From contig OZ241865.1 in assembly GCA_965203275.1 (NCBI GenBank), positions 2,240,001 to 2,304,000 on the forward strand: a stretch of DNA of 64,000 nt. Direction: 5' to 3'. A program made the position numbers and the translations under genes. Below, one piece after another: positions 6,505 to 63,740 of the stretch. The stretch's first letter is position 1. Each line of letters opens with the position of its first letter. The notes beneath the pieces were generated by a model. The model was not told the origin of the DNA, searched no databases, and saw only the letters and a program-made list of their open reading frames with translations. Source of the DNA: Bdellovibrionales bacterium. GTDB lineage: Bacteria; Bdellovibrionota; Bdellovibrionia; Bdellovibrionales; JAUICD01.

Positions 6505-7145
6505 ACAACCCGGCAAGCTGGCAACCCGGTACCAGAAGGAAATTAAGAAAGAACTCAGAAAAAATTGTTTCCTTAACATGGTGTTAAAAGACGAGAGGAT
6601 CCTCCCTACTAAAAGTGGTCAGACAGCAAGCTTCTCTGAAGCTTGCCATGTAACAACACTAGGCGATGACCATTTTATCGACGGGAAATAAATATCTTGT
6701 TTCCTTAACATCGTGTAAAGAGACAAGAGGATTCTTCCTACTAAAAATAAACGGATTTTTGAGGCAATCAGCCTTTGATCGACGGCGACAGCCGTCGGGC
6801 TGATTGCCCAAAAACAGCTAGAAGCTGGTTTATTTTTAGTGAGACAAACGTGGTCATCGCCAGAAAGTAGCCAGAGGCTAGACCACTTTTAGTGAGCCAA
6901 CGGCATTGCTCTTTTTAGACAGCGTAAGCTGTCAGAGCAAACGTCAGAAGGAAATCTTTTTCCTTAACATTGTGTTAAGAAATGAGGACATCCTCCTTCC
7001 TAAAATTGAACAGGCTTTTGAGACAGTTAGCCTTTGATCGACGGCGAGAGCCGTCGGGCTAACTGTCCAAAAGTAGCCAGAGGCTAGTTCAATTTTAGGG
7101 AAACAGAGGCTGGTTTATTTTTAGTGAAACAACTCATTTTGAGTG
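6505..7145 (+). repeat. Cluster of dispersed ~142-bp structured elements (full and partial copies)
   Basis: TTCCTTAACAT..GTTAA / GAGGAGATCCTC / CTACTAAAAGT...ACTTTTAGTGAA modules. Full copy at 6960..7102. Confidence 0.9.
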
Positions 7146-7164
7146 AAAAACAAAGGAGTAATCA

Positions 7165-8133
7165 TTGGCACCTACTGAAGAACAAATCAAACAAAGTGCA
7201 AAGCTTATACAGAATGCATTAAATGAAACAAATAAAATCATTGTTGGTCAAAGGCAGATGCTTGAATCCATTATGATAGGTATGCTTACGGGAGGTCATA
7301 TCCTGCTAGAAGGTGTTCCTGGATTAGCAAAAACTTTAGCTATCTCAACCTTTTCAAAAATTATTTCATTGGATTTTCAAAGAGTTCAATTTACTCCTGA
7401 CTTGTTACCTTCAGACCTTATTGGTACCATGATCTTTAATCAGAAAACAGGAGATTTTGTAGCAAAAAAAGGCCCTATCTTTACCAATCTTGTTTTAGCA
7501 GATGAAATCAACAGAGCTCCAGCAAAAGTTCAATCGGCTCTATTAGAAGCTATGGCTGAAAAGCAAATCACTATTGGAGAATATTCATATACCCTTGCTC
7601 ACCCTTTTCTAGTTTTAGCCACACAAAATCCTATAGAACAAGAAGGTACTTATCCTCTGCCGGAAGCTCAAATGGATCGTTTTATGTTTAAGGTTTTAGT
7701 CAACTATCCTAATAAACAGGAAGAAAGACAAATTTTAGAAAATATGTCCTACGACCAAAATATCCAACCTGATATTATAATGACAAGGGAAGACCTTTTA
7801 AACACTGCTCAAATGCTACAACATATTTATATGGATGAAAAGGTCAAGGATTATATTGTAGATTTAGTGATGTGTACTCGTGTGCCTAAAGAATATGGGT
7901 TGAACTTAGAAAGATTTCTTCAAATAGGGGTCTCACCAAGGGCAACCATTCATTTGACAAGAGCAAGTCGTGCGTATGCCTACCTTCATAATAGAAACTA
8001 TGTTACGATTGATGATGTTAAGAGCATGGCTTATCCTGTTTTACGTCACCGGCTCTTATTGACATACGAAGCAGAAGCAGAAGAATATACCAGTGACGAA
8101 GTGATTAAAAAACTCTTATCTCATATCAATTGA
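7165..8133 (+). CDS. moxR: MoxR-family AAA+ ATPase
   Basis: LEGVPGLAKT, RVQFTPDLLPSD, LADEINRAPAKVQSALLE, QNPIEQEGTYPLPEAQMDRF. Confidence 0.93.
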   Translation: MAPTEEQIKQSAKLIQNALNETNKIIVGQRQMLESIMIGMLTGGHILLEGVPGLAKTLAISTFSKIISLDFQRVQFTPDLLPSDLIGTMIFNQKTGDFVAKKGPIFTNLVLADEINRAPAKVQSALLEAMAEKQITIGEYSYTLAHPFLVLATQNPIEQEGTYPLPEAQMDRFMFKVLVNYPNKQEERQILENMSYDQNIQPDIIMTREDLLNTAQMLQHIYMDEKVKDYIVDLVMCTRVPKEYGLNLERFLQIGVSPRATIHLTRASRAYAYLHNRNYVTIDDVKSMAYPVLRHRLLLTYEAEAEEYTSDEVIKKLLSHIN

Positions 8134-8176
8134 AGGCAGGCGAGCTTGATGATGATGGAGCAGGAAATGAAAAGAA

Positions 8177-8390
8177 TTACAAATTTAAGTTCACTTGCTT
8201 GGGTTTGAAAGTTTGAGGTGAATTCACAAGTTTAGCACTGTCACCGACTGCCTTAATCACAAATAATCCTTGTCCCTCTGCATATTTGATAAGGAGCTTC
8301 TCATTGTCTGCTTTCAAATAACCTATAGCAATGTAAACTTTTTTATTAGAAAATTCATTGTCTTTGACAGCTAAAAAACTTTGTACTTCC
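8177..8390 (-). pseudogene. C-terminal fragment of a DUF3782-like PD-(D/E)XK protein
   Basis: The tail YAEGQGLFVIKAVGDSAKLVN..FKPK resembles that family. The 5' part is replaced by CCTGAGTTTGACAG repeat ends. Confidence 0.45.
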
Positions 8391-8736
8391 TGAGTTTGAC
8401 AGTTGGCCTGAGTTTGACAGTTGATTTGCAAATGTGGATATCTTTTTTTTGAGAATGCTTTATTTATAGGTGTTAATGTTTGATTTTCGCCCCTAAAAAG
8501 ATATGTTGATCATATCAACGGCCATTTCAACAGATCACAACTTTTTAAGAGATAATGAAGGCAAGTCAAAATATTGATGAAATTTCTATCATAATTTTCC
8601 AACTTTGAAAACTAGCCTTTAGAACTCAAATGGACCTTCCGATTTTTATTTCACGGCGTTTATAAATGCTCAAAAATCACACAATCAAAAAATAAACAAC
8701 GGAGAGCCAGATTATGAAAAAATAACTACAATAAAT

Positions 8737-9730: not shown

Positions 9731-9997
9731 TTAAGTGGAACGTTTGGATAGTAGCTCAAATATCTTATCAAGGCGTCGATTGACGTGGTCAATCTTCTGA
9801 TCAAGTGCCTTAATGTCGTCCTTCATCTCTTTAATCTGTGAGGGTATATGATTACTGACTTGTTCTTTAATATCCTTCTTAAAATCCTTGAATTGTTCCT
9901 TGAACTGTTCTTTAAAAGGTTCAACATAAAACCTCACTATGCCGATCAAGCTACCAAAAAAAACTATGAAAGTTACAATTATTTGTAATAATTCCAT
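9731..9997 (-). CDS. Small TM-anchored coiled-coil protein, copy 1
   Basis: GGAGG RBS before MELLQ, one TM helix, VSNHIPSQI, coiled coil. Confidence 0.75.
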   Translation of the reverse strand: MELLQIIVTFIVFFGSLIGIVRFYVEPFKEQFKEQFKDFKKDIKEQVSNHIPSQIKEMKDDIKALDQKIDHVNRRLDKIFELLSKRST

Positions 9998-10020
9998 ATT
10001 CAAAACCTCCATTTTATATC

Positions 10021-10070
10021 ATTATACCCTATTAACATCAAAAGTCAACCGCCCACATTAAACTGTGGGC
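10021..10070 (-). promoter_or_regulatory. Sigma70-like promoter with adjacent hairpin (second copy at 10541..10590)
   Basis: Minus strand TTGACT-16bp-TATAAT. GCCCACA-TTAAAC-TGTGGGC inverted repeat next to the -35. Confidence 0.6.
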
Positions 10071-10196
10071 AACATGCAACATCCTAACTGGCTAAAATTA
10101 AACAGCTTTTTGATATAAACTTTGTTGATTTACTAACTACCTCAAGAATCTATACATTTTAAGCAAACAGAGTCTTTTTGGACTTGTAGTATAAGA

Positions 10197-10517
10197 TTAA
10201 GTGGAACGTTTAGATAGTAGCTCAAATATCTTATCAAGGCGTCGATTGACGTGGTCAATCTTCTGATCAAGTGCCTTAATATTATTATCAACTTTCTGAT
10301 CAAGTTTATCAATTTTCTGATCAAGTGCCTTAATGTCGTCCTTCATCTCTTTAATCTGTGAGGGTATATGATTACTGACTTGTTCTTTAATATCCTTCTT
10401 AAAATCCTTGAATTGTTCCTTGAACTGTTCTTTAAAAGGTTCAACATAAAACCTCACTATGCCAATTAAGCTACCAAAAAAAACTATGAAAGTTACAATT
10501 ATTTGTAATAATTCCAT
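10197..10517 (-). CDS. Small TM-anchored coiled-coil protein, copy 2 (+18 aa)
   Basis: Identical to copy 1 plus the insert KLDQKVDNNIKALDQKID. Confidence 0.75.
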   Translation of the reverse strand: MELLQIIVTFIVFFGSLIGIVRFYVEPFKEQFKEQFKDFKKDIKEQVSNHIPSQIKEMKDDIKALDQKIDKLDQKVDNNIKALDQKIDHVNRRLDKIFELLSKRST

Positions 10518-10707
10518 ATTCAAAACCTCCATTTTATATCATTATACCCTATTAACATCAAAAGTCAACCGCCCACATTAAACTGTGGGCAACATGCAAC
10601 ATCCAATTTCACACTCCCCATCCATTTAGTTAGTCAAGATTAAACTTTATGAATTGTTAGATGCAATAGACACTTGAATATTTTTACAATATTTGTTACT
10701 AAAATAA

Positions 10708-11640
10708 GTGACATGGTGAAAAAAATGAGTTTTCTCGACATGTACTTGGTGATATGGTGAAAAAAACGGGTTTTCTCGACATGTACTTGGTGACATGGTG
10801 AAAAAAACGGGTTTTCTCGACATGTACTTGGTGACATGGTGAAAAAAGTGAGTTTTCTCGACATGTACTTGGTGATATGGTGAAAAAAATGAGTTTTCTC
10901 GACATGTACTTGGTGACATGGTGAAAAAAGTGAGTTTTCTCGACATATACTAGGTGATATGGTGAAAAAAGTGAGTTTTCTCGACATATACTTGGTGACA
11001 TGGTGAAAAAAGTGAGTTTTCTCGACATATACTAGGTGTGAAAAAAATGAGTTTTCTCGACATGTACTTGGTGATATGGTGAAAAAAGTGAGTTTTCTCG
11101 ACATATACTAGGTGACATGGTGAAAAAAGTGAGTTTTCTCGACATGTACTTGGTGATATGGTGAAAAAAATGAGTTTTCTCGACATATACTAGGTGACAT
11201 GGTGAAAAAAGTGAGTTTTCTCGACATGTACTTGGTGACATGGTGAAAAAAATGAGTTTTCTCGACATGTACTTGGTGACATGGTGAAAAAAGTGAGTTT
11301 TCTCGACATGTACTTGGTGACATGGTGAAAAAAATGAGTTTTCTCGACATGTACTTGGTGACATGGTGAAAAAAGTGAGTTTTCTCGACATATACTAGGT
11401 GACATGGTGAAAAAAGTGAGTTTTCTCGACATGTACTTGGTGATATGGTGAAAAAAGTGAGTTTTCTCGACATATACTAGGTGACATGGTGAAAAAAGTG
11501 AGTTTTCTCGACATGTACTTGGTGATATGGTGAAAAAAATGAGTTTTCTCGACATGTACTTGGTGATATGGTGAAAAAAATGAGTTTTCTCGACATGTAC
11601 TTGGTGATATGGTGAAAAAAACGGGTTTTCTCGACATATA
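10708..11640 (+). repeat. Tandem array of 23 x 41-bp units
   Basis: Consensus GTGACATGGTGAAAAAAGTGAGTTTTCTCGACATGTACTTG. No spacers. One unit has a 6-bp deletion near 11038. Confidence 0.97.
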
Positions 11641-11654
11641 TTAAGGTGTATAAA

Positions 11655-12794
11655 ATGAATAAGCAATCACAGCAATTATTTGATCCAAAAGTTCCCTTTG
11701 CACTTACAAAGTTGCCTCCTCCTATCATCAATGTTCAAAATAATGCAGATATTATGACAGCCTATCTTGAAGCTCAAAAAAATATTTCTGAACTTAACGG
11801 AAGATTAAGAGAGGTAGAAAATCCTGATCTCTTATTGAGTTTTTTTTATTTGAATGAATCCATACAAAGTTCAGCAGTGGAAAATATCTATACGACTATT
11901 GATTCTGCCTTAGAAGATGAAATAAAACCTGAAGAAGAAAGAAGTAGTATAAATAAAGAAGTCATAAGATATCGTGAAGCCATTTCGATAGGTTCTAATT
12001 GTATGAAAGAGCATGGTTTATCTTCTAGAACGATTAAAGAAATTCATAAAAAATTAAATATTCAAAAAGGAGTCCCAGGAGAATTTAGACGACAACAAAA
12101 TAAAATTGCTAATAAAAAAACAAATGATGAAATCATCATTGTTTATACACCTCCTGAAATAATGGCTTTAGATGGACTCTTAGGTAATTGGGAAAATTTT
12201 GTACACCAAAATCAAGACTTCTTTCCATTAATTAAAACAGCTATTTGTCATTATCAATTTGAAGCTATACATCCTTTTGTTGATGGTAATGGTCGAACAG
12301 GAAGGATTCTACTTGTTTTACAGCTTGTATTAGAGAAAATGTTAGATATTCCTGTCTTATTTATTAGTGGGTATCTGAATAAATATGATCAAAAATATAA
12401 AGAGTTGCTTTTGAAGATCACCAAAGATGGAGACTGGTATAGTTTCATTCAATTTATGTTGCAAGGATATACAATACAAGCTAAACAAACACAAGAATCT
12501 CTTTTGAAATTAAAAGATGCACAGAAAGAATTAAAAAAAACCTTATATAATACAGACAGTTTAGGTATAAGAAAAAGTAATATTTCAGATATTGTTAAGC
12601 ATGTTATTTATTATCCTATCACACATGTTTTACACATGGAAGAAAAAACAGAAATTCATCGGCAAACATGTTCTAAATATTTATCTGCTATGGCTGAGGC
12701 AGGGCTATTAAGATCTAAAAAAGCAGGAAAATATAAACATTATATCAATTTTAAAGTCTTAGATTCACTTAAATTAGATTCTGAAGATTCTTAA
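11655..12794 (+). CDS. Class II Fic-domain protein (AMPylase) with C-terminal winged HTH
   Basis: HPFVDGNGRTGR Fic motif, N-terminal inhibitory SSAVEN motif, C-terminal RQTCSKYLSAMAEAGLL HTH. Confidence 0.92.
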   Translation: MNKQSQQLFDPKVPFALTKLPPPIINVQNNADIMTAYLEAQKNISELNGRLREVENPDLLLSFFYLNESIQSSAVENIYTTIDSALEDEIKPEEERSSINKEVIRYREAISIGSNCMKEHGLSSRTIKEIHKKLNIQKGVPGEFRRQQNKIANKKTNDEIIIVYTPPEIMALDGLLGNWENFVHQNQDFFPLIKTAICHYQFEAIHPFVDGNGRTGRILLVLQLVLEKMLDIPVLFISGYLNKYDQKYKELLLKITKDGDWYSFIQFMLQGYTIQAKQTQESLLKLKDAQKELKKTLYNTDSLGIRKSNISDIVKHVIYYPITHVLHMEEKTEIHRQTCSKYLSAMAEAGLLRSKKAGKYKHYINFKVLDSLKLDSEDS

Positions 12795-20115: not shown

Positions 20116-20589
20116 TTAAATAACTGTTTCCTTACAAAAACTATCAAAAACTTGCCACTTTAGCTGTTGGCAATCCAATGGCTTATCATTATCCAAAGAG
20201 ACCACAAGCCCACAAATATATACCCTGTGATCATGAAACTTCTTAGATGTTGATAGTGTTTCTTTACAAGCTTGAGTCATGGCCGGAATACCTCGATAGA
20301 TATTGCATGTGCTTTCCTTACAAGCACTTAAAAGATTTGCCTTAGTTCCTTTCAATTTGTTTTTTTCAATATAATTTGTGTTTGGACTATAAAGACTATC
20401 CCATGCTTTCTGTGTGATGCGAATGTCTGTATTTATCCTTTTGTCTGTTTTTACATTAAGGCTTTCATTAATAAAAGCAATTGGAGCAATCCATGATATT
20501 GCCAAGCAAACAAAAGCACACGATAACCCTATAGGATTATCTAGTTTCTTAATCGTTATTTTTAGAAAGTTAAGTGTCTTTAAAACCAT
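20116..20589 (-). CDS. Hypothetical protein between pilins
   Basis: One TM helix and several Cys; translationally coupled to the upstream pilin. Confidence 0.55.
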   Translation of the reverse strand: MVLKTLNFLKITIKKLDNPIGLSCAFVCLAISWIAPIAFINESLNVKTDKRINTDIRITQKAWDSLYSPNTNYIEKNKLKGTKANLLSACKESTCNIYRGIPAMTQACKETLSTSKKFHDHRVYICGLVVSLDNDKPLDCQQLKWQVFDSFCKETVI

Positions 20590-21290
20590 TATCCGCCATT
20601 TATATAATGTGTTAGCTTTTTATTTGAATTAATTAGCCATTGATCAATCCTTTTGCCACCAATATTGCCAGTAGCATTAATATTAAAAATGACTTCACTT
20701 CCTCTATTATTAACACCATTAGGACTATAGCCACAGTTGCCTGTACCTCCTGGTGGTGTTTTATTACATTGTCCTCTAACCATGTTATCAAAAGTACAAG
20801 TTACTCCAGTGCCACAGTCTGGACAAGCACACGTACCAGTAATCTTCATCCTCGGAGTCATGCTATCATTTGGATGGAAGCTCAATACACCCGGAGCAAA
20901 ATCAAAGTTCATTTCTAGTGTATTAACTTCATCTATATCTGTAGCTAAAGGACCATCATAGCCACCACCTGACACCTGAGATCTGGCCGTTACGTTGACA
21001 TTTATTCCTACAGCTACTTTGTCTCTTATATGCCATCCGGCCATATAATAAGCATCTCCTATTTGGCTATATCCCATTTGTCGTAGGTTAGGTGTTCCAA
21101 CATCCCACTCGGTGATAAATGTCATTTGGGCCCCATAAATACCACTAAGTATTGTTTTAGCATTGGCTTGAATAGCCTTTCGTTTAAATTGACCATATTG
21201 TGGTACGGCAATCACAGCTAATATGCCAATAATAGCCACAGTAACCATTATCTCAATTAAAGAAAATCCTTTTTGATTTGATCTGTCCAT
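20589..21290 (-). CDS. Type IV pilin
   Basis: GFSLIEIMVTVAIIGIL; Cys-rich variable C-terminus. Confidence 0.92.
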   Translation of the reverse strand: MDRSNQKGFSLIEIMVTVAIIGILAVIAVPQYGQFKRKAIQANAKTILSGIYGAQMTFITEWDVGTPNLRQMGYSQIGDAYYMAGWHIRDKVAVGINVNVTARSQVSGGGYDGPLATDIDEVNTLEMNFDFAPGVLSFHPNDSMTPRMKITGTCACPDCGTGVTCTFDNMVRGQCNKTPPGGTGNCGYSPNGVNNRGSEVIFNINATGNIGGKRIDQWLINSNKKLTHYINGG

Positions 21291-21307: not shown

Positions 21308-21732
21308 TTCACTCAAAATGCATCATGCCTCTGGCATGTTTTTGGGCAGTTAGCCCGACGGCTTATCGCCGTCGGGCTAACTGTTATTAGAAGGATATTT
21401 TCCTTAACATGATGTCAAGAGGCAAGGATATCCTTTCTTACTTGAAATGAACGGATTTTTTAGGTGTTGCCTATTTTGTCAAAGGCGAAAGCCTTTGCAG
21501 GCAACACCAAAAAACACACCAGAGGTGTGGTTCATTTCAAGTGAAAATGACGGCTGGTTTATTTTTAGTGAAAATGTAAGAAGGAACTTTTTCCTTAACA
21601 TGGTGTTACAAAATGAGGAGATCCTCCCTACTAAAAGTGGTCAAGCTTTCTAGGTTGCCAGCATTTAAGAAGGCGACAGCCTTCGGCTGGCAACCAGAAA
21701 GTGACCAGAGGTCAGACCACTTTTAGTGAACC
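21308..21732 (+). repeat. Cluster of dispersed ~142-bp structured elements
   Basis: Full copies at about 21399..21545 and 21591..21730. Confidence 0.9.
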
Positions 21733-21734
21733 AT

Positions 21735-22225
21735 TTAATTTCAGGGTATTTGGTCTTTAGATAGTAGAAAAAGTACAAAGGAACAGCATGATTTTTTCAT
21801 AAAATTCTTTTCATTTGTGAAAAAGGTGTCGCAAAGTACCGATAAAAAGTATATAATGGATCTCATCACTAAAGCGATGACTTATTTTTATCAGTACAAT
21901 AATCAGTTAAGCAAAGAAGTTGTTCAATCAGCTTCAAAAGAAGTGACCCAACAATTAGGAGGAGAAGATCTTATGGAAGCATTTGACTTTACCATAGAAG
22001 GTACTATGAAAAAAGGCATTCAGATTGGCCAAGAGAAAGGCAGAGAAGAAGGTAGGCAAGAAGGTAGGCAGAAGGTAGGCAGAAGGTAGAGAAGAAGGAA
22101 AGCAAAGTATTATCTTAAAAATGCTTAAAAATAACATGGATATTTCGACTATTGCAAAAATCACAGAGTCCACAGAGAACAAAATACGAGAAATACAGAA
22201 AAAACTACAAGTTTCAAATTCCTAA
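21735..22225 (+). pseudogene. C-terminal remnant of an Rpn-family (PD-(D/E)XK putative transposase) gene, frameshifted in the EGRQ repeats
   Basis: KGIQIGQEKGREEGRQEG then KMLKNNMDISTIAKIT in another frame. Internal GGAGG-ATG at 21973. Confidence 0.75.
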
Positions 22226-23974: not shown

Positions 23975-24289
23975 TCATTTATTCACTTTTATTTAAAGTA
24001 CCATTGGATTTGATCATCTAACCGAGATTTTAAGCAATATTTTTCCTTCATAATTGAAAGATGATGGTGAATTGAGGGTTGTCAAGGTTGATTCAATTAT
24101 TTTTTTCACTTTCTGTAAGACAAGGCATTTTTTCCTTAACATGGTGTTAAGAGACAAGAGGGTCCTTCTCTACTAAAAGGCCTGAGTTTGATAGCCTGCA
24201 AAAATAAAATTGAGTAAAATCAGTACGTTATAAGCCGAGAGAGATTTTATGCCACTAGGATGTAAGCTTTTCATATTGTCATCATAAAT

Positions 24290-24395: not shown

Positions 24396-25112
24396 TTATT
24401 GTGTCCCGTCTTCCTCATTTTGCATTACTTTACCACTAGACATAGTCCACTCATCAGTTACAGCACCCCCTATATCTCCAGAGGCCCCTATAATAAAAGC
24501 AATATTGCCAGCACCTCGGACAGAATTATCTATGGCACTAGCTCCAGGTGTTGCTGCAGTAACTATCTGCCCTAAACAACTTGACCTATTTCCAGCTCCA
24601 TCATGCGGATCGCATAAAGTAGTACTCCCGGTGCAGTCGTTTGTGGCAACGGTCCATCCACAATATGTATTTCCTGACGCCTCCACGATTGAAGGCGTTC
24701 CAGCTGTAATACCATAAGCTGTATCGAATGCTTCATGTGTACTTACCTTATCAACATCAGCAGCTGTTTGTGGAAGTGGTCCTCGAAAACCCGCTGGCCG
24801 GGTTATTGTATTTACGTTATTATTGGTAGTGGTTTTTTGAGCTGCCGCCCATCCAGCATTATAAGTTACAGCTCCGTCAGTATTAAAGCCTAACTGTACC
24901 AAACTCGCTGTTCCAACTCCCCATTCAGAAATAAAAGCTATTTCAGTTGCATATATACCAGAAAGAAGTGTCTTCGCTTCTGTTTGCATTGCCCTTCTTT
25001 GGAATTGAGCATATTGTGGAATAGCCACAGCGGCCAGAATTCCAATAATAGCCACGACGACCATTAATTCAATTAAACTAAAACCTTTTTGATTCTTAAT
25101 TAAACGTTCCAT
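24396..25112 (-). CDS. pilA: Major type IV pilin, cassette 1
   Basis: GGAGG RBS then [34 protein letters not shown]. Confidence 0.85.
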
Positions 25113-25131
25113 AATAACCTCCACGGTTTAA

Positions 25132-25340
25132 TTCACTAAAAGTGGTCTAGCCTCTGGCTACTTTTGGGCAATGACCGCAAAGGCTTTCGCCTTTGACAAA
25201 ATGGTCATTGCCTCAAAAGCCTGACCACTTTTAGTAGGAAGGATACTTTCGTTTCTTAACACTATGTTAAGGAAAAAGTTCCTTCTGTTGATTTCCTTTT
25301 CACTCAAAGTAAACCAGCTTCTGGTCACTTTTAGTGAAAC
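25132..25340 (-). repeat. Dispersed structured element inserted upstream of pilin RBS
   Basis: Full reverse copy at 25132..25274 plus a partial copy. Confidence 0.9.
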
Positions 25341-25352
25341 ATTCTAAACGAC

Positions 25353-25829: not shown

Positions 25830-26383
25830 TCTTGTTTCCCTAACATTGTGTCAATCCGGGATCTGGGATCCGGGATCCAGCAACCCGGCATCTGGTCCTA
25901 GAAATGAACTTTTTCCTTAACATCGTGTTAAAAAACGAGGAGATCCTTTCTACTAAAAGTGGTCAGGCTTTCTAGGTTGCCAGTAGTGATGAAGGAATTT
26001 TTTCCTTAACATGATGTTAAAAAAGGAAGAGATCCTCCCTACTAAAAGTAAACGGACTTTTGAGGCAATGACCATTTTGCCAATGGCAAAAAAAGTGAAA
26101 TAAATATCTTGTTTCCTTAACATGGTGTTAAGAGACAAAGAGATCCTTCCTACTAAAAGTAAACGGACTTTTGAGGCATTGCTCTTTTAATATAATTTTG
26201 AAAGCATTGTGTTTCCTTAACATGCAGTAAAAAAATGAAGAGATCCTCCCTACTCAAAGTGAACAGGCTTTTGAGACAATGACCATTTTGTCAACGGCGA
26301 AAGCCGTTGCGGTCATTGTCCAAAAGTGGCCAGAGGCCAGTTCACTTTGAGTGAAACAGAGGCTAGTTTACTTTTAGTGAAAA
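25830..26383 (+). repeat. Cluster of dispersed structured elements abutting the CRISPR array
   Basis: Several 5' modules and a full copy at about 26213..26355. Confidence 0.9.
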
Positions 26384-28103: not shown

Positions 28104-28237
28104 GCTTAAAATATCCTACGGATTGCAATGGGTTAGGGGTGATATGATGTGTTATTTTTCGAAGAAAAGTATATTGTAAAAAATATGCTTGATTTTGCGA
28201 AGACATTTTACCACCTCCTACTCATAGCTCTAGTAGC

Positions 28238-28391
28238 CCTATAGTATAAGTTAAATCTTTTAACCACTGTAATCATCTGATGATGTGATCAAATCATATA
28301 TAAATCATATATGATTTGTCATAAACAAAAGAGAACAAAAACTTAAGGGTTTTGTGACCAAGCCACTACCAAAGGTACGCTTGGTTTTTTT
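28238..28391 (+). ncRNA. tracrRNA-like RNA, divergent scaffold, copy A
   Basis: Anti-repeat AGTATAAGTTAAATCTTTTAACCACTGTAATC, then hairpins and an ACCAAGC..GCTTGGT-T run terminator. Confidence 0.7.
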
Positions 28392-28518: not shown

Positions 28519-28662
28519 TTTCCTTAACATCATGTTAAAAAATGAGGAGATCCTCCTTACTAAAAGTAAACGGACTTTTGAGGCAATCAGCCTTTGATCG
28601 ACGGCAAAAGCCGTCGGGCTGATTGCCCAAAAGCAACCAGAGGTTGGTTTACTTTTAGTGAA
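28519..28662 (+). repeat. Dispersed ~142-bp structured element
   Basis: Full copy between the two tracr-like duplicates. Confidence 0.9.
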
Positions 28663-38836: not shown

Positions 38837-40129
38837 GTGAAAAAGATAATTTTATTACGTCAAGTCATTTTATTATGCATGCTATTTTTGATGGCCACAG
38901 ATGTTGCTGAAAGCCACACAGCAGATCAAATTTGTACTCATGTTCTCATTACAACCGATGATCAAAGGTTGGTTCATCTAAAGAAATATCTTGAAACTTA
39001 TAATAAGAAACCTTTTGACCAACCCAAAACCTCATTAGCAGAAGCCCTCGCAGAAATATTGTTACACATAAACCCTACTTTCAATAGAAAAATACCTTCA
39101 GATGCAACTGTAAAAAGAAATGTCTCTAATAGTACAATTGATGAGTATCAATTTTCAGATGATATTTTCAAACTCTATCGTTATCTTTCTTTTAACAGAG
39201 ATGAAGGTTCTGTACATTATGGAAGATGGCTTTTTTTCCAAATAAATCAAGAGCCTATAGAACATCCACTGGCCACAACTTACAATATACAACATACAGG
39301 TGTTGTGCTAACAATCGAATCCTTAGATAGAAATCTATATCGATATCATCTTTATTATATTGAAGATCAAGGACTTATTTTAGAAACTTTTGATCCTATA
39401 GTAGGGTTTGACTTTTATCTATCTTACAAAATAGACGATATACATATTGTTCTGCCTCATAAACAATCATATTTAAAGAGTAAAATGAAAAAACGTAATG
39501 ATTATTATATCCATTTGAATGAATATTCTATCAATCAAAATGCAAATATTTTTAGAAGAATGTTTAACCATCGAAAAATAGAGGATAACTATCAATTTAT
39601 ATCCTATGAGAATAATGAAAAAGAAATTGTTCCAGGTAAGATTCTTAATATTACAAGTCGTGTGACAGTTAAAGGTTTAATGGGCATTTTCTCCTTAGAC
39701 AACAGAGAAGAACTCAATAGTGTTTGGGTAGATGAAATATTGGGTGAAATTCTTATAACTTCTTATTTTTCAGAAGATAAAAATAAACCTTTTGACCCTT
39801 ATGCATTTATGAAGCCTCTGCCTCCTAAAAAGCCTCTTGATTATTATAGTGCTTTTAGATTTGCAAAAATTTTTCAATCAGGCCATTTAAAAGAGGATGA
39901 ACGTTTTATTTCTTATCCTATATCTCATCCAGATGGTCAAAGACGTATTGCTCAAATTATTCAGTGGGATGAATATCAAATGCAACTGATAGAATACAGA
40001 GGCAATGGAAAACCTTTTGTATTTAATCGAATTATATTATCAAGTAAACTTTTAGATAATATAACAATCAGTCGATATGCTAAAGAATATTTTACTCAAG
40101 TGGACTTTAATCGTTACTTATTTCACTAA
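38837..40129 (+). CDS. Secreted hypothetical protein
   Basis: 430-aa ORF with signal-like N-terminus. The stop codon is supplied by a dispersed element end. Confidence 0.65.
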   Translation: MKKIILLRQVILLCMLFLMATDVAESHTADQICTHVLITTDDQRLVHLKKYLETYNKKPFDQPKTSLAEALAEILLHINPTFNRKIPSDATVKRNVSNSTIDEYQFSDDIFKLYRYLSFNRDEGSVHYGRWLFFQINQEPIEHPLATTYNIQHTGVVLTIESLDRNLYRYHLYYIEDQGLILETFDPIVGFDFYLSYKIDDIHIVLPHKQSYLKSKMKKRNDYYIHLNEYSINQNANIFRRMFNHRKIEDNYQFISYENNEKEIVPGKILNITSRVTVKGLMGIFSLDNREELNSVWVDEILGEILITSYFSEDKNKPFDPYAFMKPLPPKKPLDYYSAFRFAKIFQSGHLKEDERFISYPISHPDGQRRIAQIIQWDEYQMQLIEYRGNGKPFVFNRIILSSKLLDNITISRYAKEYFTQVDFNRYLFH

Positions 40130-40485
40130 AAGTGGTCTGACCTCTGGTCACTTTCTGGTTGCCAGCCGAAGGCTTTCGCCTTCTCAAATGCTGGCAACCT
40201 AGAAAGCCTGACCACTTTTAGTAGGGAGGATCTCCTCGTTTCTTAACAGGATGTTAAGGAAACAAAATGCTTTCAAAATTATATTAAAAGAGCAATGTCT
40301 CAAAAATCCGTTTATTTTTAGTAGGGAGGATCCTCTTGTCTCTTTACACGATGTTAAGGAAACAAGGCGTTTGCTTCACCCTTGCCTGATGCCGAGTTGC
40401 CGGTTTAGCTCACTAAAAGTGGTCTAGCCTCTGGCTACTTTCTGGCAATGACCACGATGGCTCTCGCCGTCGATCAAAGGCTAAA
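40122..40485 (-). repeat. Cluster of dispersed structured elements
   Basis: Full reverse copy at 40122..40261 plus partial copies. Confidence 0.9.
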
Positions 40486-40748
40486 AACCCACTTTTTCAT
40501 GGGTTTGACAATTCTTAGCTATCATTTAATCATCGTGAAAGCCACAATAAAGCCACTTTCATAGAAAACTTTAACTTTAAAAGTTAAATAAAATTAAATA
40601 AAAGTTTACTTTTAATTTAAAAGGTTTATAATAATACTAAAGGTAGGTTGTAGGTTAAAATGACAAAAGTCTATCTTTTTTCTAAAATTTATGTATAAAG
40701 CTCCGATTAAATAAAATAAACATAGATCATAAAAACAGGGAGGCTTTT

Positions 40749-41959: not shown

Positions 41960-42039
41960 TACCAATTCTATAAAGCCACGTATTTTTTTGACTCTTTTAA
42001 AGCTGTGTTTGCATTTTGACATCAATAGAATGAGAGAAA

Positions 42040-42366
42040 GGAGGATCTTCTCGTTTTTTAACGTGATGTTAAGGAAACAGAGCTTTATTCGCAAACTGCT
42101 TGCTCTTGAGGCAATAAAAGAAATTTTTCCTTAACATGGTATTTATCCGGGATCTGGGATCCGGCAACCCGGCAGTCAGGCAAGGGTGAAGCAAACGCCT
42201 TGTTTCCTTAACATGGTGTTAAGAAAAGAGGAGATCCTCCTTACTAAAAATAAACGGATTTTTGAGGCAATCAGCCTTTGATCGACGGCGAGAGCCGTCG
42301 GGCTGATTGCCCAAAAACAGCCAGAGGCTGGTTTACTTTTAGTGAAATAGACCATTTTGAGTGAAA
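42040..42366. repeat. Cluster of dispersed structured elements with GC-rich CCGGGATC module
   Basis: Full copy at about 42204..42346. Confidence 0.9.
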
Positions 42367-53684: not shown

Positions 53685-53995
53685 CCGGTTGCCGGTTTAG
53701 CTCACTCAAAGTGGCCTGTTTCACTAAAAGTAAACCAGCCGTTTGGTTCACTCAAAGTGGTCTAGCCTCTGGCTACTTTTGGGCAATGACCGCAAAGGCT
53801 TTCGCCTTTGACAAAATGGTCATTGCCTCAAAAGCCTGACCACTTTTAGTAGGAAGGATCCTTTCCTCTTTTGACACGATGTTAAGGAAAAAGATCTCCT
53901 TCTGATGCCGGGTTGCCGGATCCCGGATCCCAGATCCCGGGATCCCAGATCCCGGGATCCCAGATCCCGGGATCCCAGATCCCGGGATCCCGGAG
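53685..53995 (-). repeat. Dispersed structured element plus 15-bp GGGATCCCAGATCCC tandem repeat
   Basis: Element at about 53742..53889; about 4-5 units at about 53917..53992. Confidence 0.9.
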
Positions 53996-59000: not shown

Positions 59001-59817
59001 CACACAGCGTGGTTCATTGGTTGCAGAGGATCATCTTCGCTTTGACTTCACTCATTCAAAGCCAGTCACCCCTCAAGAAATATCTCAAATAGAAAAACTG
59101 ATCAACAATCAAATTGCACAAGCCCTGCCTGTAACGACCACTATTGAAAAAGTAGAGGACGCAAAAGCCAAAGGGGCAGTGGCTTTTTTTGCTGAAAAAT
59201 ATCCTGAAAAGGTACGCGTATTATCGATTGGTCACAACAAAGAATCCATAGAGCTTTGCGGTGGCACACATGTTAAGAACACCAGTGAAATTCAAGCCTT
59301 TGTCATTACACTAGAAGAGAGCATCAAAGGAGGTATTCGTCGGATCAAAGCCCTAGCAGGTCAATCAGCTATCAAGTATCTTTTAGAGCAGAGCAAAAAA
59401 CTCACAGTAGCTCAACAAGAAGCTCAAACAAAAAAGCTGACTGAATGGATTCGGCAGAGTCAACAAAACAACAAAGCTCTTAATAAACAAGTACAAAAAC
59501 TCACAGTAGCTCAAATCGATATTGACGCACTTGTTGCTGGGGCTACTGCAATAGAAGGCGGTCAACAAGTCAAAGCCATTTTAGAGATTAGTGATCGAGA
59601 GGCTTTAAGGCAGATCACCGATCGCATTAAAAATAAATTGGATGCAGGGATTGTGATTGTGATGGGGCAGGGTGAAAAGGGACCTTTGATGGTGGCAGTA
59701 ACTCAAAACTTAAAAGACAAATACAATGCTGTCATAGAGCTTAAAAAATACGGACAGGGAGGTGGTCGCCCTGATTTTGCTCAAGGCTTTCACTCCGTTT
59801 CTTTTCACTCAAAATAG
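56047..59817 (+). CDS. alaS: Alanine--tRNA ligase, enlarged by insertions and duplications
   Basis: FTNAGM, RHHTFF, GPCGPCSE, DTGAGLER, HTATHLLH, ELCGGTH, GGGRPDFAQ. Confidence 0.95.
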   Translation: MKAMTSQEIENKFVEFFENKGHKHVSSSSLIPEGKDLLFTNAGMNQFKDIFLGLKIPSYKRAVTVQKCFRANDLDNVGKTPRHHTFFKMLGNFSFGDYFKKEAIEWAWEFLTHPDWLGIDKSRFYVTVFDTDDEALWEQIWQKDKEAIKRNKYAFIKKDKDNFWEMGSVGPCGPCSEIFYSYGDHDSQSQDSQSQDVEIWNLVFTQSDRQKDGSLKKLKGGPFIDTGAGLERLTAVMQGVESNFETDIFMDLFGYLLEEKVIVATIRAWRKGIQQPKNESEAKIQDENIRQVFDTFLKDLSDHLQLESVPKMSEDSLSRWFFMDYIGEFQNIFEGILKKLNTPNQRKALINFLCEYLQKDRTLREDTKNYKQNLLKQTINEDQKKQNRIALLKIADHARAIACLLTDGVTFPDEGRGYVARDIFKRMCKCLEKIGISIIASTRYYMPKLPASLERNYYTPCFLVNYFIKPIDISSSSEEKKQYRFIMDSIVNETIRHANKDEMKERDHQIYSNREKIKDKIKEIKQSEEKIKKLKKEIEEKKKALQKTSSQKNKDDSVLITEEEIKKTIKQNKDEIEKEEQKIKTNAGPIQKVEKEIEEKEKEQTEDLKEAKDEKIQKKENIFHKEFEKAFQNQIPSPEALGAFAFKIFETYGISKEGIKQLLQKRDIQLNEDFDKSFKDAMEKVKKASSQEYITSQEEHLKKLCRQAKASLCLFTQKHLEKLCEKIKASLSIQEHFVGYDTLSTQTQILKLSDGQQEVQQLPAGQKGFAFFKQTPFYAESGEQMADQGAVKNLSQETLAQITDCQKYENIHYHKIQIKNNILRVNDKVILQVDSERRAETKKHHTASLSIQKYFVEHFVGYDQLSAETQILKLSDGQQEVQKLPAGQEGYAIFKQTPFYAESGGQIADQGEVKNLSQETLAQIIDCQKYEDIHYHKIQIQNNILKVNDKVILQVHPERRAETKKHHTATHLLHAALKEKLGDLVTQRGSLVAEDHLRFDFTHSKPVTPQEISQIEKLINNQIAQALPVTTTIEKVEDAKAKGAVAFFAEKYPEKVRVLSIGHNKESIELCGGTHVKNTSEIQAFVITLEESIKGGIRRIKALAGQSAIKYLLEQSKKLTVAQQEAQTKKLTEWIRQSQQNNKALNKQVQKLTVAQIDIDALVAGATAIEGGQQVKAILEISDREALRQITDRIKNKLDAGIVIVMGQGEKGPLMVAVTQNLKDKYNAVIELKKYGQGGGRPDFAQGFHSVSFHSK

Positions 59818-60650
59818 TCTAGCCGTCTTTTGCACTAAAAGTAAACTGACCTCTGGTCACTTTTGGATAGCCAGCCCGACGGCTTTCGCCGTCGATCAAA
59901 GGCTGGCTACCTCAAAAGTCCGTTTACTTTTAGTAGGGAGGATCTCATCGTTTTTTGACATGATGTTAAGGAAAAGTTCCTTCTTACATCTTTTGCCTGC
60001 AAAGGCTTTCGCCTTTGACAAAATGGTCATTGCCTCAAAAGCCTGACCACTTTTAGTAGGAAGGATCCTTTCCTCTTTTAACATCATGTTAAGGAAACAA
60101 AATGCTTTCAAAATTATATTAAAAGAGCAATGCCTCAAAAGTCCGTTTACTTTTAGTAGGGAGGATCTCTTCGTTTTTTAACACGATGTTAAGGAAACAA
60201 GAAGTTCGTTTCTCTGGATTTCTTTGGAAAGGTAAGGAATTTAGGTTTGGAAATTAGATTTTCAGTGATTTCAGCTATTTTGGTTCACTAAAAGTAAACT
60301 AGCCTCTGTTTCACTAAAAGTAAACCAACCTCTGGTTGCTTTTGGACAGTTAGCCCGACGGCTCTCGCCGTCGATCAAAGGCTAACTGTCTCAAAAGTCC
60401 GTTTACTTTTAGTAGGGGAGGATCCTCTCGTCTCTTGACCACATGTTAAGGAAAAAGTTCCTTCTTACACCTTGAGTGTTGCCTGCAACGGCTTTCGCCG
60501 TTGACAAAATAGGCAACATCTAAAAAATCTGCTCATTTTGAGTAGGGAGGATCTCTTCGTTTTTTAACACGATGTTAAGGAAACAAGATGTTTGCTTCAC
60601 GTTGGCAAAATGGTCATTGCCTCAAAAATTTATGCATTTTGAGTGAAACA
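59803..60650 (-). repeat. Large cluster of dispersed structured elements overlapping the alaS stop
   Basis: Full copies at about 59830..59973 and 60310..60453, plus several partial copies. Confidence 0.9.
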
Positions 60651-60844: not shown

Positions 60845-61303
60845 TTAAGGCTTATTTTCTAAAAAATAATCCCAGTTTTCTTTATACTTTTCAAGACTCG
60901 ATAAACTCTTGTTTTCCGGCCACTCGTTTATGTCTTCAACCGGAATTATATAACAATCTCCATTATTGCTATTTACACCAAAGATAATATCACAATCTCT
61001 TTTTGTGTATTTGTACTTTTTACTTTTTGCCTTCCTATCAATTTGTGTTCCTGATCTGCTACCACCCGTAAAATTCAAAATGCCAGTTGAAGTACCTTTT
61101 ATCTGTATTCTTAAAAGTTTTGTCTTCTTACCAGAAATATCTATAATTGCATCATACCTGGCATTTGTTATATCAACCTTAGAACATGCAAAACCTGCCT
61201 TGATCATCCGGCCTATAGCAATAAACTCGTCTGAATTGCCGTTTATAGTTCTAAATTTACCCTTATCTATATTAGTTATGTTCTTTTTCCACTTGTCAGG
61301 CAT
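60845..61303 (-). CDS. Small PD-(D/E)XK nuclease, probable type II restriction endonuclease
   Basis: E..A, RYD..ID and RIQIK motifs; overlaps the MTase stop. Confidence 0.75.
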   Translation of the reverse strand: MPDKWKKNITNIDKGKFRTINGNSDEFIAIGRMIKAGFACSKVDITNARYDAIIDISGKKTKLLRIQIKGTSTGILNFTGGSRSGTQIDRKAKSKKYKYTKRDCDIIFGVNSNNGDCYIIPVEDINEWPENKSLSSLEKYKENWDYFLENKP

Positions 61304-62286
61304 TCCTTTATTTCCTTTGCTATTTGGAAAACGACAGGAACAGACACACTATTACCTATCTGTTTATATAAATGTGAGTTGGCTATATCAGGTAAGAGAA
61401 AGTCATCAGGGAAACCCTGAAACCTTGCACACTCTCTAGGAGTTAGCTTTCTGATACCATATTTATCTTTTATGAGAGGAACGTTGTGGCCTCCCGTACC
61501 CATATTGGCCGTTAGTGTTGGACAAACGTCCGACTTATTTTCTCTTACATAGGTCCGCCTCCATTGATAAAGAATATTCGGATTTTTTATGTCTTGTTTT
61601 AGTCTTTTGTGAATAGAAAATCTGTGATAATAAAAAGACTCATCCTGTTTATTAGCTAACAAAATATCTTTTATTTTTCTTTTTAGCTTTATAGGTTGAG
61701 GGAATTTAAAGCACGATTGATGTAAAAACCCGACAATATAAATACGTTCTCTTGTTTGTGGAATATTGCCATAATCTTTTGTATTCATTATTTTATAATC
61801 AACACTGTATCCAAGGGTTTTTATGTTCTCTAACATTTGCCTTAAAATTCTTCCTTTATCTAAAGAAGCAAGCCCTTTCACATTTTCTAAAAGAAAACCA
61901 TCTGGCCTTTTTTCTTTTAATATTCTTTGTATTTCAAAAAACAAACATCCTCTTTTATCTTTTAACCCTCTTTTTTCGCCGGCATAACTGAAAGGCTGAC
62001 AGGGAAACCCGGCAAGTAAAATATTATGATCTGGTATGTCTTTAGATGGTATCTTTGTTATGTCACCGCTTGGACTTTCTTTGAAGTTAGCTTTATACGT
62101 CAGTCTAGCCTTTTTATCTATCTCACTGGAAAAAACACACTGACCACCGGCCGCTTCAAATGCTAGTCGCAAACCACCGATACCTGCGAAAAGATCAATA
62201 AACTTTAGCTTATCAGAATGAATATCTGGAGGTCCCATTTTTATACCGGATTTCCTTTTTGTTTTTATTGGATCTTTTTTGGTCAA
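61276..62286 (-). CDS. C5-cytosine DNA methyltransferase
   Basis: DLFAGIGG, GFPCQPFS, ENVKG, PQTRER, QGFP, YKQIGNSV. Confidence 0.96.
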   Translation of the reverse strand: MTKKDPIKTKRKSGIKMGPPDIHSDKLKFIDLFAGIGGLRLAFEAAGGQCVFSSEIDKKARLTYKANFKESPSGDITKIPSKDIPDHNILLAGFPCQPFSYAGEKRGLKDKRGCLFFEIQRILKEKRPDGFLLENVKGLASLDKGRILRQMLENIKTLGYSVDYKIMNTKDYGNIPQTRERIYIVGFLHQSCFKFPQPIKLKRKIKDILLANKQDESFYYHRFSIHKRLKQDIKNPNILYQWRRTYVRENKSDVCPTLTANMGTGGHNVPLIKDKYGIRKLTPRECARFQGFPDDFLLPDIANSHLYKQIGNSVSVPVVFQIAKEIKECLTSGKRT

Positions 62287-62589
62287 TATTATTAAACTAC
62301 TATCTATTTCTATATTTTATCAAGAGATTTTTTTATTTTTTTTTCTTTCTCTTAAAAATCAAGTCCCTTGTGTGTGTGGGGAGGGGGGTCTAACACTTGC
62401 GAGGTCTTAACAAAAAAATATTTGAGTTTTTTGTGATGGTTATTGGCTTACAAGCAGTTGAGCTTAAAAAATGCTATTTGCCTAAAAAAAACAAAAGGGC
62501 TACTAGGCCCTTTTGTTAAAAAAACATAGGGACTTTAGCAATAGTCCCTATGCTCATCATACTTAAACTTTAAAATTAAAGGATTATGT

Positions 62590-63285
62590 TTATTTATTTA
62601 AGCCATCTTGTGTGTTTGATACCTTCTTACCTTGATCAATTATCCATCCATCGTGATCAGTAGCAGTCGGTGAAGCCTTTAAACCAAGATAACCAACAGC
62701 TCCCACAGTGAAAGATATTTGAGTTCCACCATCTGCTATTTCTAAACCATTAGAATCGTAAGTACCACTACAAGTGCTTGTTCCTGCAGTCCAAGTGCAA
62801 GAGTTTCTTGGAGTATTAACCGCGGTTTTACATGTTGCCGCAGTGCTAGGCCCTTCACAATCTAACTTTCCTTTAAAAGCATCATTGGTATTTGTAATCG
62901 TAGCAAGCCAATCAGCACCAACGTTTGGAGTACCAGGGTTCGCTGATCTTGTCGGACCTCTATACCCATCAGGCAAATCAGCACTGGCCGCATCTTTACT
63001 ATCAGAAGTTCTAGCCTGAAAACCAACAGAATAGACTGGAGAATCTCCCTCTAAAGCAAAACCTAACTGGGCCATATCAGACGAAGCAAATCTCCATTCT
63101 GTTATGAATGACTTCTCAGCTACGTACAGACCACTTAATGCTGTTTTAGCCTCTGTTTGCATTGCTCGCTTTTGAAAACGACCATATTGTGGTATAGCAA
63201 TGGCGGCCAGTAGACCAATAATAGCCACGACGACCATTAGCTCGATTAAACTAAAACCTTTTTGATTCTTAATTAAACGTTCCAT
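62590..63285 (-). CDS. pilA: Major type IV pilin, cassette 2
   Basis: Same RBS and leader [24 protein letters not shown] as cassette 1; divergent C-terminus. Confidence 0.85.
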   Translation of the reverse strand: MERLIKNQKGFSLIELMVVVAIIGLLAAIAIPQYGRFQKRAMQTEAKTALSGLYVAEKSFITEWRFASSDMAQLGFALEGDSPVYSVGFQARTSDSKDAASADLPDGYRGPTRSANPGTPNVGADWLATITNTNDAFKGKLDCEGPSTAATCKTAVNTPRNSCTWTAGTSTCSGTYDSNGLEIADGGTQISFTVGAVGYLGLKASPTATDHDGWIIDQGKKVSNTQDGLNK

Positions 63286-63403
63286 AATAACCTCCACGGT
63301 TTAAAATAATTCAATTCAATGGACAAGCATTTTTTACTTGCCCTTCTTTACTCTTTAGTTAGGCTTGTTTGTATCTCCCAGATGCTTATTCCACCTAATC
63401 TTT

Positions 63404-63740
63404 TTCACTCAAAATGAACTGACCTCTGGTCACTTTTGGACAATGACCGCAAAGCCTTTCGCCTTTGACAAAATGGTCATTGTCTCAAAAGCCTGTTCAT
63501 TTTGAGTAGGGCGAATCTCCTTGCTTCTTACACCATGTTAAGGAAAATTTTCTTTCATTGCCTTAAAGGCAAGCATTTTGCAAATGAAACTCTTTTTCCC
63601 TAACATCCTGTCAAAAAATGAGGAGATCCTCCCTACTAAAAGTGGTCAAGCTTTCTAGGCGATGACCATTTTATCGACGGCGAGAGCCGTCGTGGTCATC
63701 GCCAGAAAGTAGCCAGAGGCTAGACCACTTTTAGTGAAAC
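63404..63740. repeat. Two divergent dispersed structured elements upstream of pilin
   Basis: Reverse copy at 63405..63545 and forward copy at 63596..63738. Confidence 0.9.

Follow-up and report, generated by a model that had tools for sequence, protein, structure and literature searches.

What is the ~140-base DNA unit that recurs throughout the 64-kb window analysed here (the whole stretch of 64,000 nucleotides), its letters varying from copy to copy while a three-armed hairpin fold is kept, and how does it multiply? We counted 14 full copies plus partials in 11 clusters in the window (Table 1), in agreement with an earlier note on this DNA, which had reported at least a dozen full and many partial copies in 11 clusters. 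The dispersal described there is real but is not limited to the window: the whole 2.57-Mb genome of this uncultured Bdellovibrio-like bacterium (G000; completeness 90.4%) is populated, with 733 full copies and 1356 pieces in total, or 5.8% of the genome. An assembly artefact was excluded because element k-mers far exceed single-copy read depth in four sequencing runs (∼100–250x in X1, X2 and X7, ∼20x in the low-depth run X6). In the unit, a head of 37 nt that can be exchanged precedes a folded core of 104 nt and a short tail rich in A and C; the core is a three-way junction with a GNNA-capped apex. It is non-coding, non-autonomous, multicopy and intergenic; just 3 of the 733 full copies lie inside ORFs of at least 200 aa, the four orientation classes relative to neighbouring genes are about equal, and orientation is also independent of replichore.

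Table 1. Copies, pieces and heptamer tracts in the window (model, positions in the element model).
Feature	Position	Strand
Heptamer tract 5′ of first cluster	6510..6533	+
Partial/mosaic copy, model 1-84	6571..6684	+
Full copy	6703..6842	+
Stacked internal-start pieces, model 95-141, 62-111	6849..6949	+
Full copy	6962..7101	+
3′ end re-copied twice, stacked	7102..7148	+
Partial copy; overlaps head of next copy	21309..21419	-
Full copy, then stacked 3′ end to about 21572	21402..21544	+
Full copy	21593..21729	+
Head-only piece, model 1-46	24134..24179	+
Full copy upstream of type IV pilin gene; short 3′ pieces to 25337	25133..25272	-
Heptamer tract	25856..25877	+
Three consecutive 3′-truncated copies, model 1-70, 1-86, 1-77	25915..26190	+
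Full copy and stacked 3′ end running into first type II-B CRISPR array repeat	26215..26382	+
Full copy flanked by duplicated block (28165 and 28669; 137 identical nt)	28522..28661	+
Full copy	40123..40259	-
Two partial copies; heptamer tract 40381-40403 in between	40284..40489	-
Head pieces and heptamer tract (42147-42184, +)	42036..42184	.
Full copy (42206-42345) and stacked 3′ end	42206..42366	+
Full copy (53748-53887) and two stacked 3′ ends	53701..53887	-
Heptamer tract immediately 5′ of 53748-53887 copy	53904..53993	-
Full copy (59833-59971), stacked 3′ end, two 3′-truncated copies	59804..60194	-
Full copy (60311-60451), stacked 3′ end, partial copies	60284..60646	-
Full copy	63405..63543	-
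Full copy, head-to-head with 63405..63543 copy	63598..63737	+

Covariation was analysed in an alignment of 51 copies drawn from three assemblies. Pairing in the four core helices is 96.1–98.8%, and 31 of 41 core pairs have changed on both sides; none of 500 shuffles matched the observed pairing values, slid controls were 36–50% paired, and individual copies fold with z = −9 to −12. The extensive compensatory covariation that had been claimed is thus present, and each of the seven stem pairs quoted with that claim was found within single copies in the window. In contrast, the two small 5′ hairpins did not hold up as conserved helices, with pairing of just 81.5% and 76.5%, and the apical loop, proposed as GNRA, is better described as GNNA because it is not strictly GNRA here (c-GNNA-g in 566 of 725 copies, with GNYA in 188 of the 566). 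Shared information between partner arms exceeds that of neighbours (outer arms, 0.69 vs 0.33–0.55), and 630 of 844 non-partner site pairs occur in all four combinations, indicating that modules reshuffle while partner arms stay together. Mosaicism among copies is heavy, and linkage drops sharply at position 38, the stem base. On the evidence of covariation beyond linkage, we conclude that the element fold is under selection, in support of the selected multi-stem single-strand structure proposed before. Conservation extends to 31 unpaired columns and a head motif. Only ∼1% of stem cells are G-T, with a slight excess of G-T over A-C on the + strand (254 vs 125), and rare changes per conserved column (A>N 0.43–0.78, C>T 0.83, G>A 0.91) show no A-to-N bias. 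Recurrence at dispersed loci was seen for 27, 16, 9, 0 and 0% of the haplotypes whose cores have 0, 1, 2, 3 and 4+ mismatches, respectively, a trend confounded by copy age.

Pairs of filled and empty sites showed that insertions are either clean or target-deleting. Across 565 clusters, the number of flank repeats of at least 8 nt matched that of the control (69 vs 57), there is no fixed target duplication, and added leaders and target deletions make the ends imprecise. The element 3′ end is fixed and is joined to many internal starts; 62 of 836 3′ ends are joined head-to-tail to position 1 through a 7–8-nt linker, and a circular permutation was seen at one 147-nt insertion site only. Junctions are varied, with occasional long duplications, and some insertions sit within other palindromic repeats or break genes and CRISPR arrays. 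A terminal inverted repeat (TTGTTTC/GAAACAA) was considered and rejected, as leader and tail do not covary. Rfam contained no match at gathering score in the window and none at E≤5 over 25850-28950, leaving the element without an Rfam family even below threshold; this result and the comparison of filled with empty sites bear out its earlier description as an undescribed non-autonomous mobile repeat. We conclude that the element is inserted, non-coding selfish DNA with a fixed 3′ end, heavy mosaicism, no fixed target duplication and a selected fold, and we regard its selfish, fold-selected nature, taken alone, as highly probable.

In a covariance-model survey of 151 genomes of the order, with 21 candidates scored per genome, 3 genomes matched, and among the genomes surveyed the element was found in one genus only, with ∼3x as many copies in G000 as in the sister species G001. 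Another genome, G004, was rejected as an independent carrier; its element matches lie on contigs C1, C4 and C11, of which C11, the one checked, looks mis-binned, with a second rplN region that is 94% identical to G001. Searches of phages and plasmids by blastn returned only 24–35-nt matches at E of 2–6, and a pattern scan of metagenome stretches (118) and viral contigs (7) was chance-like, with no full copy in 126 loci and a best score of 13.5 bits. The literature, searched mostly outside subscription journals, held no description of the element or of a four-helix-bundle/heptamer element.

The most consistent neighbour of the element is a small multicopy four-helix-bundle gene with heptamer tracts. 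The gene matches PF05635/TIGR02436 (S23p/Avd-related), and its predicted four-helix fold, a monomer model resembling Xcc0516 and BT_0352, likewise assigns it to the four-helix family; Avd was absent among the fold matches listed. The protein is basic (pI 9.9), we know of no chemistry for it, and there appeared to be no longer or fused forms. Copies in this genome (9 intact, 23 broken or partial) are dispersed outside rRNA. A same-strand element starts no more than 200 nt behind 25 of 28 four-helix gene ends vs 52 of 1550 other genes, although the 25 may stem from few independent events because the gene copies are 94–100% identical. Among gene fragments, 18 are C-terminal-only and 4 N-terminal-only, and 17 of 18 C-terminal fragments start behind an element 3′ end. 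The genome contains 422 heptamer tracts, compared with none when shuffled, and the tracts contact element 5′ ends far more often than 3′ ends (224 vs 28). Most of the link to these genes and tracts lies outside the window. The 28 CRISPR spacers gave only 15–16-nt chance matches to the element and the four-helix gene.

In G001, an element lies within ∼400 nt at 11 of 17 four-helix gene loci, in either orientation, vs 5 of 20 loci of Rpn (YhgA-like PD-(D/E)XK) nucleases within 2.2 kb; a same-strand downstream element occurs at only one intact gene (L048), most neighbours being on the opposite strand. In G004 there are 19–24 four-helix gene matches, and those loci that were examined lacked an element; because this genome was rejected as a carrier, the co-occurrence of gene and element rests on two genomes of one genus. 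The same protein family includes S23p of 23S rRNA intervening sequences (PMC4990558) and stand-alone PF05635/TIGR02436 genes; unlike those intervening sequences as described there, the genes here are dispersed outside rRNA and have a separate structured passenger.

One explanation for these results is that the travelling form of the element is a folded single strand, DNA being somewhat more likely than RNA, which host polymerase, by switching templates, would copy into stalled forks or breaks. Such switching would yield target deletions, occasional long duplications, leaders, stacked 3′ ends and 147-nt head-to-tail arrays, and older copies would be converted. Less firmly, the helper may be the multicopy four-helix-bundle (S23p/Avd-like) gene cassette with its heptamer tracts. 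Avd serves the reverse transcriptase (RT) of diversity-generating retroelements (DGRs) yet is non-catalytic itself; by analogy, the basic four-helix protein could attach to the folded strand and bring in a host enzyme, with the element as passenger of the cassette. The whole chain, from selfish element through folded strand and host polymerase to four-helix helper cassette, has in our judgement somewhat less than an even chance of being correct.

A travelling DNA strand would fit the GNYA loops in this genome, which resemble the DNA mini-hairpin GCGNNAGC (PMC13037366). However, this argument is weakened because apical loops in G001 are mostly GNRA (37 of 43 GNNA loops) and often T-A closed (25 of 43). 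The same source describes primase-loading hairpins of the ssDNA phages G4, St-1 and alpha3, which share the GCGAAAGC / GCGTTAGC mini-hairpin apex with the element, and the G4 origin also has the word CCCTACT, at the primer start, in common with it. Homology to the G4 origin was rejected, as the words shared outside the hairpin differ in order and are no more than chance would give, 53% of control windows scoring equally high.

An alternative, which we consider unlikely, is that the element is the REPIN-like passenger of an HUH (Y1/Y2) transposase, now lost or too divergent to detect, and leaves its site as a 147-nt circle that then re-inserts. The lack of a fixed target duplication, the head-to-tail junctions with their short linker and single circular permutation, the DNA-like loops in G000 and the one Y1 gene in G001 all agree with it, but searches of G000 (90.4% complete) gave no match to the Y1_Tnp (RAYT/HUH) profile, to Y1 proteins of relatives by phmmer or to Rep_trans (control matched in 1/14). 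For the Y2 or Rep HUH protein of an IS91 or rolling-circle element, searches of G000 with Y2_Tnp and Rep_1 were blank, but so were the controls for both. The single Y1 locus of G001 had no element flank in the loci scanned. Imprecise ends, added leaders and target deletions likewise disfavour this mechanism, as strand transfer by IS200/IS605 is precise. The sole TnpB-type zinc-ribbon match was rejected because it is Cas12a-like, its gene lying next to cas1/cas2 and an array. REP/REPIN/BIME sequences with RAYT are short, intergenic, hairpin-forming, non-autonomous, clustered and nested, with hundreds of copies (PMC3116915). The element shares its intergenic, non-autonomous, multicopy, hairpin-forming, clustered and nested character with them, but differs in being one 140-nt three-way junction rather than an inverted doublet of short palindromes, in having modular covarying alleles, added leaders, heptamer tracts and stacked 3′ ends, and in the lack of any RAYT gene found in G000. 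It differs from the MITEs of DDE insertion sequences in having neither excess flank repeats nor leader-tail covariation, and from IS110 bridge/seek RNA elements in that the PF02371 recombinase was found in 0 of 4 genomes (control matched in 6/14).

Rather unlikely, too, is a SINE-like retro-element, in which an RT would copy a transcript into breaks starting at the 3′ end, truncating copies at the 5′ end and jumping between templates, the gene and heptamers being 5′ parts of the same transcript. This would explain the fixed 3′ end with variable 5′ starts and the predominance of C-terminal-only gene fragments, and G001 has GNRA loops, three RVT_1 matches, and group II-like and retron-like RTs; Avd, moreover, acts together with an RT and a structured spacer RNA of 140 nt (10.1101/2023.10.23.563531). 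Yet neither the RVT_1 profile nor phmmer with four RTs from relatives found an RT in G000, despite its more numerous copies, and the lack of A-to-N bias, the few G-U pairs and the many GNYA loops speak against copying of this kind. The resemblance to DGRs, as that source describes them, is a basic four-helix protein beside a ∼140-nt structured unit; unlike in DGRs, we found no RT, saw no template/variable repeat pair and detected no adenine-specific mutagenesis. The earlier proposal of mobilisation by a linked HUH/RAYT, IS110 or RT gene is unsupported because no such gene was found in G000, where our searches identified no catalytic partner.

It is also possible, but quite unlikely, that there is no dedicated helper and that a stable hairpin, by stalling replication, is spread through template switching and gene conversion by ordinary repair enzymes, its links to genes and heptamers reflecting shared hot spots. 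The variety of junctions, occasional long duplications, heavy mosaicism, linkage break at the stem base and insertions in other palindromic repeats are consistent with this, but it leaves unexplained the conserved unpaired bases, the head motif, the three-way junction and the preference of heptamer tracts for the 5′ end, and MutS is present. We judge it improbable that Rpn nucleases make the breaks and act as helper. In G000 there are 14–16 Pfam matches per Rpn family, and of the 17 long Rpn genes 16 have an element piece within ∼200 nt; but no element was found in G003 despite its 16 Rpn matches, few Rpn loci of G001 have one, and elements are oriented to Rpn genes as they are to genes across the genome. 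A structured ncRNA or ribozyme that serves the host, as the earlier note had entertained, is very improbable and unsupported because, despite strong covariation and the slight + strand G-T excess, there are hundreds of intergenic copies with gene-independent orientation, insertions break genes and CRISPR arrays, and the family lacks an Rfam match and was found in one genus only.

As a bacterial repeat the element is unusually dense and elaborate, with ∼730 full copies in 2.6 Mb, fold selection visible in one genome and no recognised copying enzyme. Extending the reading of a folded strand copied by host polymerase with a four-helix helper, we tentatively propose, as a possibility more likely wrong than right, a new mobile-element class that has no catalytic gene of its own and in which stand-alone four-helix-bundle (S23p/Avd-like) genes take the helper role. 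Their protein would bind the folded strand and divert a polymerase or primase of the host, so that heptamer tracts, the cassette itself and structured passengers are written into breaks. The 140-nt unit, amplified to 6% of the genome, would then be the first such passenger. If the tie is a shared hot spot only, the element is still a good and moderately interesting natural case of a selfish hairpin that recombines. Through the tie to PF05635, a protein family of very large size (12,800 cluster representatives at E≤0.001) gains a concrete substrate on which its function can be tested, and the tie may also be relevant to how heptamer repeats arose in bacteria. Among related four-helix loci, an upstream stem of at least 12 bp was present in 43 of 57, compared with 3 of 56 in the control, and a 7–8-nt periodicity in 37 of 57, compared with 3 of 56.

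The repeat starts with CCTTAAC (position 1) and ends with AGTGA (position 141); a short A/C-rich tail comes next. Four helices lie within positions 38–140: the outer and inner stems, the apical hairpin and the side hairpin. Every stem pair quoted in an earlier note on this DNA was found inside single copies in the window, and its claim that pairing is kept despite sequence change was borne out: in 51 copies the core helices were 96.1–98.8% paired, with two-sided changes in 31 of 41 core pairs. None of 500 shuffled controls reached the observed pairing values, and slid partners were 36–50% paired. The two small 5′ hairpins that the note also described were paired at just 81.5% and 76.5% in these copies and are unsupported. 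Shared information was 0.69 between the outer arms, 0.50 between outer and middle stems and 0.33 between outer stem and apex; six middle alleles were found with one outer-stem allele, and all four combinations occurred at 630 of 844 non-partner site pairs versus 5 of 17 partner pairs. Because partner arms share more information than they do with the modules between them, and because all four combinations are commoner at non-partner than at partner site pairs, we conclude that the covariation goes beyond what relatedness of the copies alone would explain. The head (1–37), the 15–25-nt leader and the tail had almost no linkage to the core: linkage dropped abruptly at position 38.

The genome, a single contig (C1) of 2,567,810 bases (35% GC, 90.4% complete) in which the window occupies positions 2240001–2304000, was searched with a profile built from 580 distinct copies, yielding 1356 element pieces, 733 of them full, that make up 5.8% of the genome. 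In the window, the multicopy family noticed earlier forms 11 clusters that contain 14 full copies and numerous pieces. The repeats are real, since element k-mer depth was ∼100–250 times single-copy in sequencing runs X1, X2 and X7 and ∼20 times in X6, a run of low depth (the runs come from three studies). Recurrence at dispersed loci was seen for 61 of 225 core haplotypes with no mismatch, 22 of 134 with one, 4 of 44 with two, 0 of 18 with three and 0 of 55 with four or more, which suggests that well-folded copies are those that spread, a trend confounded by copy age. Taken without any mechanism, a selfish, fold-selected element is highly probable.

Paralogous empty sites (74 candidate clusters, 30 under stricter criteria, many non-independent or inside other repeats) showed clean insertion, loss of ∼4–45 target bases or tail microhomology. 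The target duplications that the note had proposed to look for did not emerge, flank repeats in 565 clusters showing no excess over a shuffled control; single long duplications exist, one in the window (see table) and one of ∼37 bases in a second CRISPR array. Among 836 element 3′ ends, a 7–8-nt linker connects 62 to position 1 of the following copy, ∼180 are joined to positions 118–125, others to 32, 59–67 or 101, and 360 enter other DNA. One site contains, in two tandem copies, a circularly permuted element of 147 nt that begins at position 108; these copies differ in core alleles, implying later conversion. Together, the junction and insertion features appear to fit polymerase template switching better than precise strand transfer.

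Self-comparison of 2046 ORFs of this genome revealed multicopy Rpn genes, IS-type transposase families (IS256 confirmed) and a 101-aa PF05635/TIGR02436 protein. The latter is predicted to form a four-helix bundle (pLDDT 92.9) whose fold matches Xcc0516 and BT_0352; Avd of diversity-generating retroelements is described as a similar pentamer needed for but outside catalysis (10.1101/2023.10.23.563531). Relatives of the four-helix gene have 7-nt (heptamer) tracts at 37 of 57 loci and an upstream hairpin at 43 of 57 (controls, 3 of 56 each), and the copies in this genome are framed by both. A same-strand element start lies ≤200 nt after 25 of 28 of their 3′ ends (8 of 9 intact), as against 52 of 1550 other genes. 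An element 3′ end precedes 17 of 18 C-terminal gene fragments, and 237 heptamer tracts make 224 contacts with element 5′ ends versus 28 with 3′ ends. The 64-kb window itself holds no four-helix gene. Judged by their 94–100% identity, the gene copies may descend from few events.

By extrapolation from 32 copies in 360 kb, the sister species (G001) would have ∼260 full copies of the element; an element lies within ∼400 nt of 11 of its 17 four-helix loci, usually on the opposite strand. In four of the loci the gene is broken at roughly the codon that is interrupted in this genome. Among the five genomes compared, the gene was found in G000 (this genome), G001 and G004 and was absent from G002 and G003, a pattern the element apparently shared. 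However, G004 copies lie on three contigs, one of which (C11) carries an additional rplN region matching G001 at 94% identity and is probably mis-binned from a G001-like organism; the element is thus secure in one genus only. In other Bdellovibrionota (loci L056, L059, L062 and L088), small branched palindromes, some with GCGAAGC, immediately precede four-helix genes and are possible analogous passengers.

We propose that host polymerases would write a folded single strand of this non-autonomous element into stalled forks or breaks, probably with help from the four-helix cassette; the whole chain is tentative, somewhat short of an even chance. Features of IS200/IS605 strand transfer, IS91 and target-primed reverse transcription were used in comparing the rivals. 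That a lost or unrecognised HUH transposase moves the element is unlikely. The HUH/RAYT, IS110 or reverse transcriptase helper anticipated in the note did not turn up in this genome, either with Y1_Tnp, RVT_1, IS110 and Rep_trans profiles or by phmmer with the reverse transcriptases and Y1 proteins of relatives; the Y2 and Rep_1 searches are uninformative, both being blank in this genome and silent in their controls.

Spread through RNA by means of a reverse transcriptase is quite unlikely, and a DNA intermediate is favoured. Apical loops here are c-GNNA-g in 566 of 725 copies (GNYA in 188 of those 566), fitting the mini-hairpin GCGNNAGC, which PMC13037366 describes as far more stable in DNA than in RNA form and as present in ssDNA phage origins. 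G-T pairs occupy ∼1% of stem cells (254 G-T versus 125 A-C, one invariant T-G pair set aside). Counting against the DNA mini-hairpin, loops in 65 sister-species copies are mostly GNRA (37 of 43 GNNA) and often T-A closed (25 of these 43).

Helper-free, hairpin-driven copying is decidedly unlikely. Rpn proteins have nuclease activity, and an Rpn helper is improbable: 16 of 17 Rpn genes here are flanked by the element, but only 5 of 20 in the sister species, and G003 has 16 Rpn matches without the element. Some 40 Rpn/YhgA-like genes and fragments occur in this genome, several of them interrupted at one shared site by heptamers together with an element. A host ncRNA is highly improbable, and the structured ncRNA or ribozyme option of the note fares no better, since copies are oriented without regard to neighbouring genes (199, 188, 184 and 159) or replichore and only 3 of 733 full copies lie inside long ORFs, which speaks against an RNA that acts in cis or serves the host.

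Searches of Rfam, phage, plasmid and metagenome sequences gave no match and a literature search no description, consistent with an undescribed element. It works like REPINs as described in PMC3116915, but this genome is without RAYT and the element without doublet structure. S23p intervening sequences (PMC4990558, in part) and msDNA-like repeats of Nannocystis (PMC6868368, in part) served as further comparisons; likeness to the phage G4 origin is confined to the mini-hairpin, and a MITE, an IS110 element and a DGR were ruled out by the features tested. The element is a real and striking selfish hairpin repeat with one testable lead, its tie to the four-helix gene.

Other repeats and loci were noted in passing. 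This genome has another abundant family of long palindromic repeats (two groups of 72 segments) besides several more repeat families, and the element is often inserted within them.

Features of the window and of contig C1 of this genome (G000)
Location	Feature	Remark
2323-3018, 9731-10532	Small membrane-anchored coiled-coil repeat proteins	From large paralogous families
10577-11772	Tandem array, 41-bp unit, ∼29 units	Upstream of Fic-family gene
20589-21290, 24396-25124, 62590-63297	Type IV pilin paralogues	Element copies just upstream of each
21817-22089	Rpn/YhgA-like	
25344-25599 / 63745-64000	Long upstream repeat shared by two pilin paralogues	Pilin variation possible
26380-38444	Type II-B CRISPR-Cas with cas2, cas4, 24-repeat array	Element tail enters terminal array repeat; another copy between duplicated blocks adjoining the array
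around 28522	Single long duplication	137 identical bases
29831-30795	cas1	Apparently split
34014-38444 (-)	Cas9/Csx12	
60845-62286	Cytosine methyltransferase adjoining unannotated 152-aa ORF	Between element clusters; possible restriction-modification pair
G000:C1:238802-246060	Cas12a-like gene, cas1/cas2 remnants, type V-A-like array	Array end interrupted by element copies, short duplication
C1:965809-966035	Second palindromic repeat	Example
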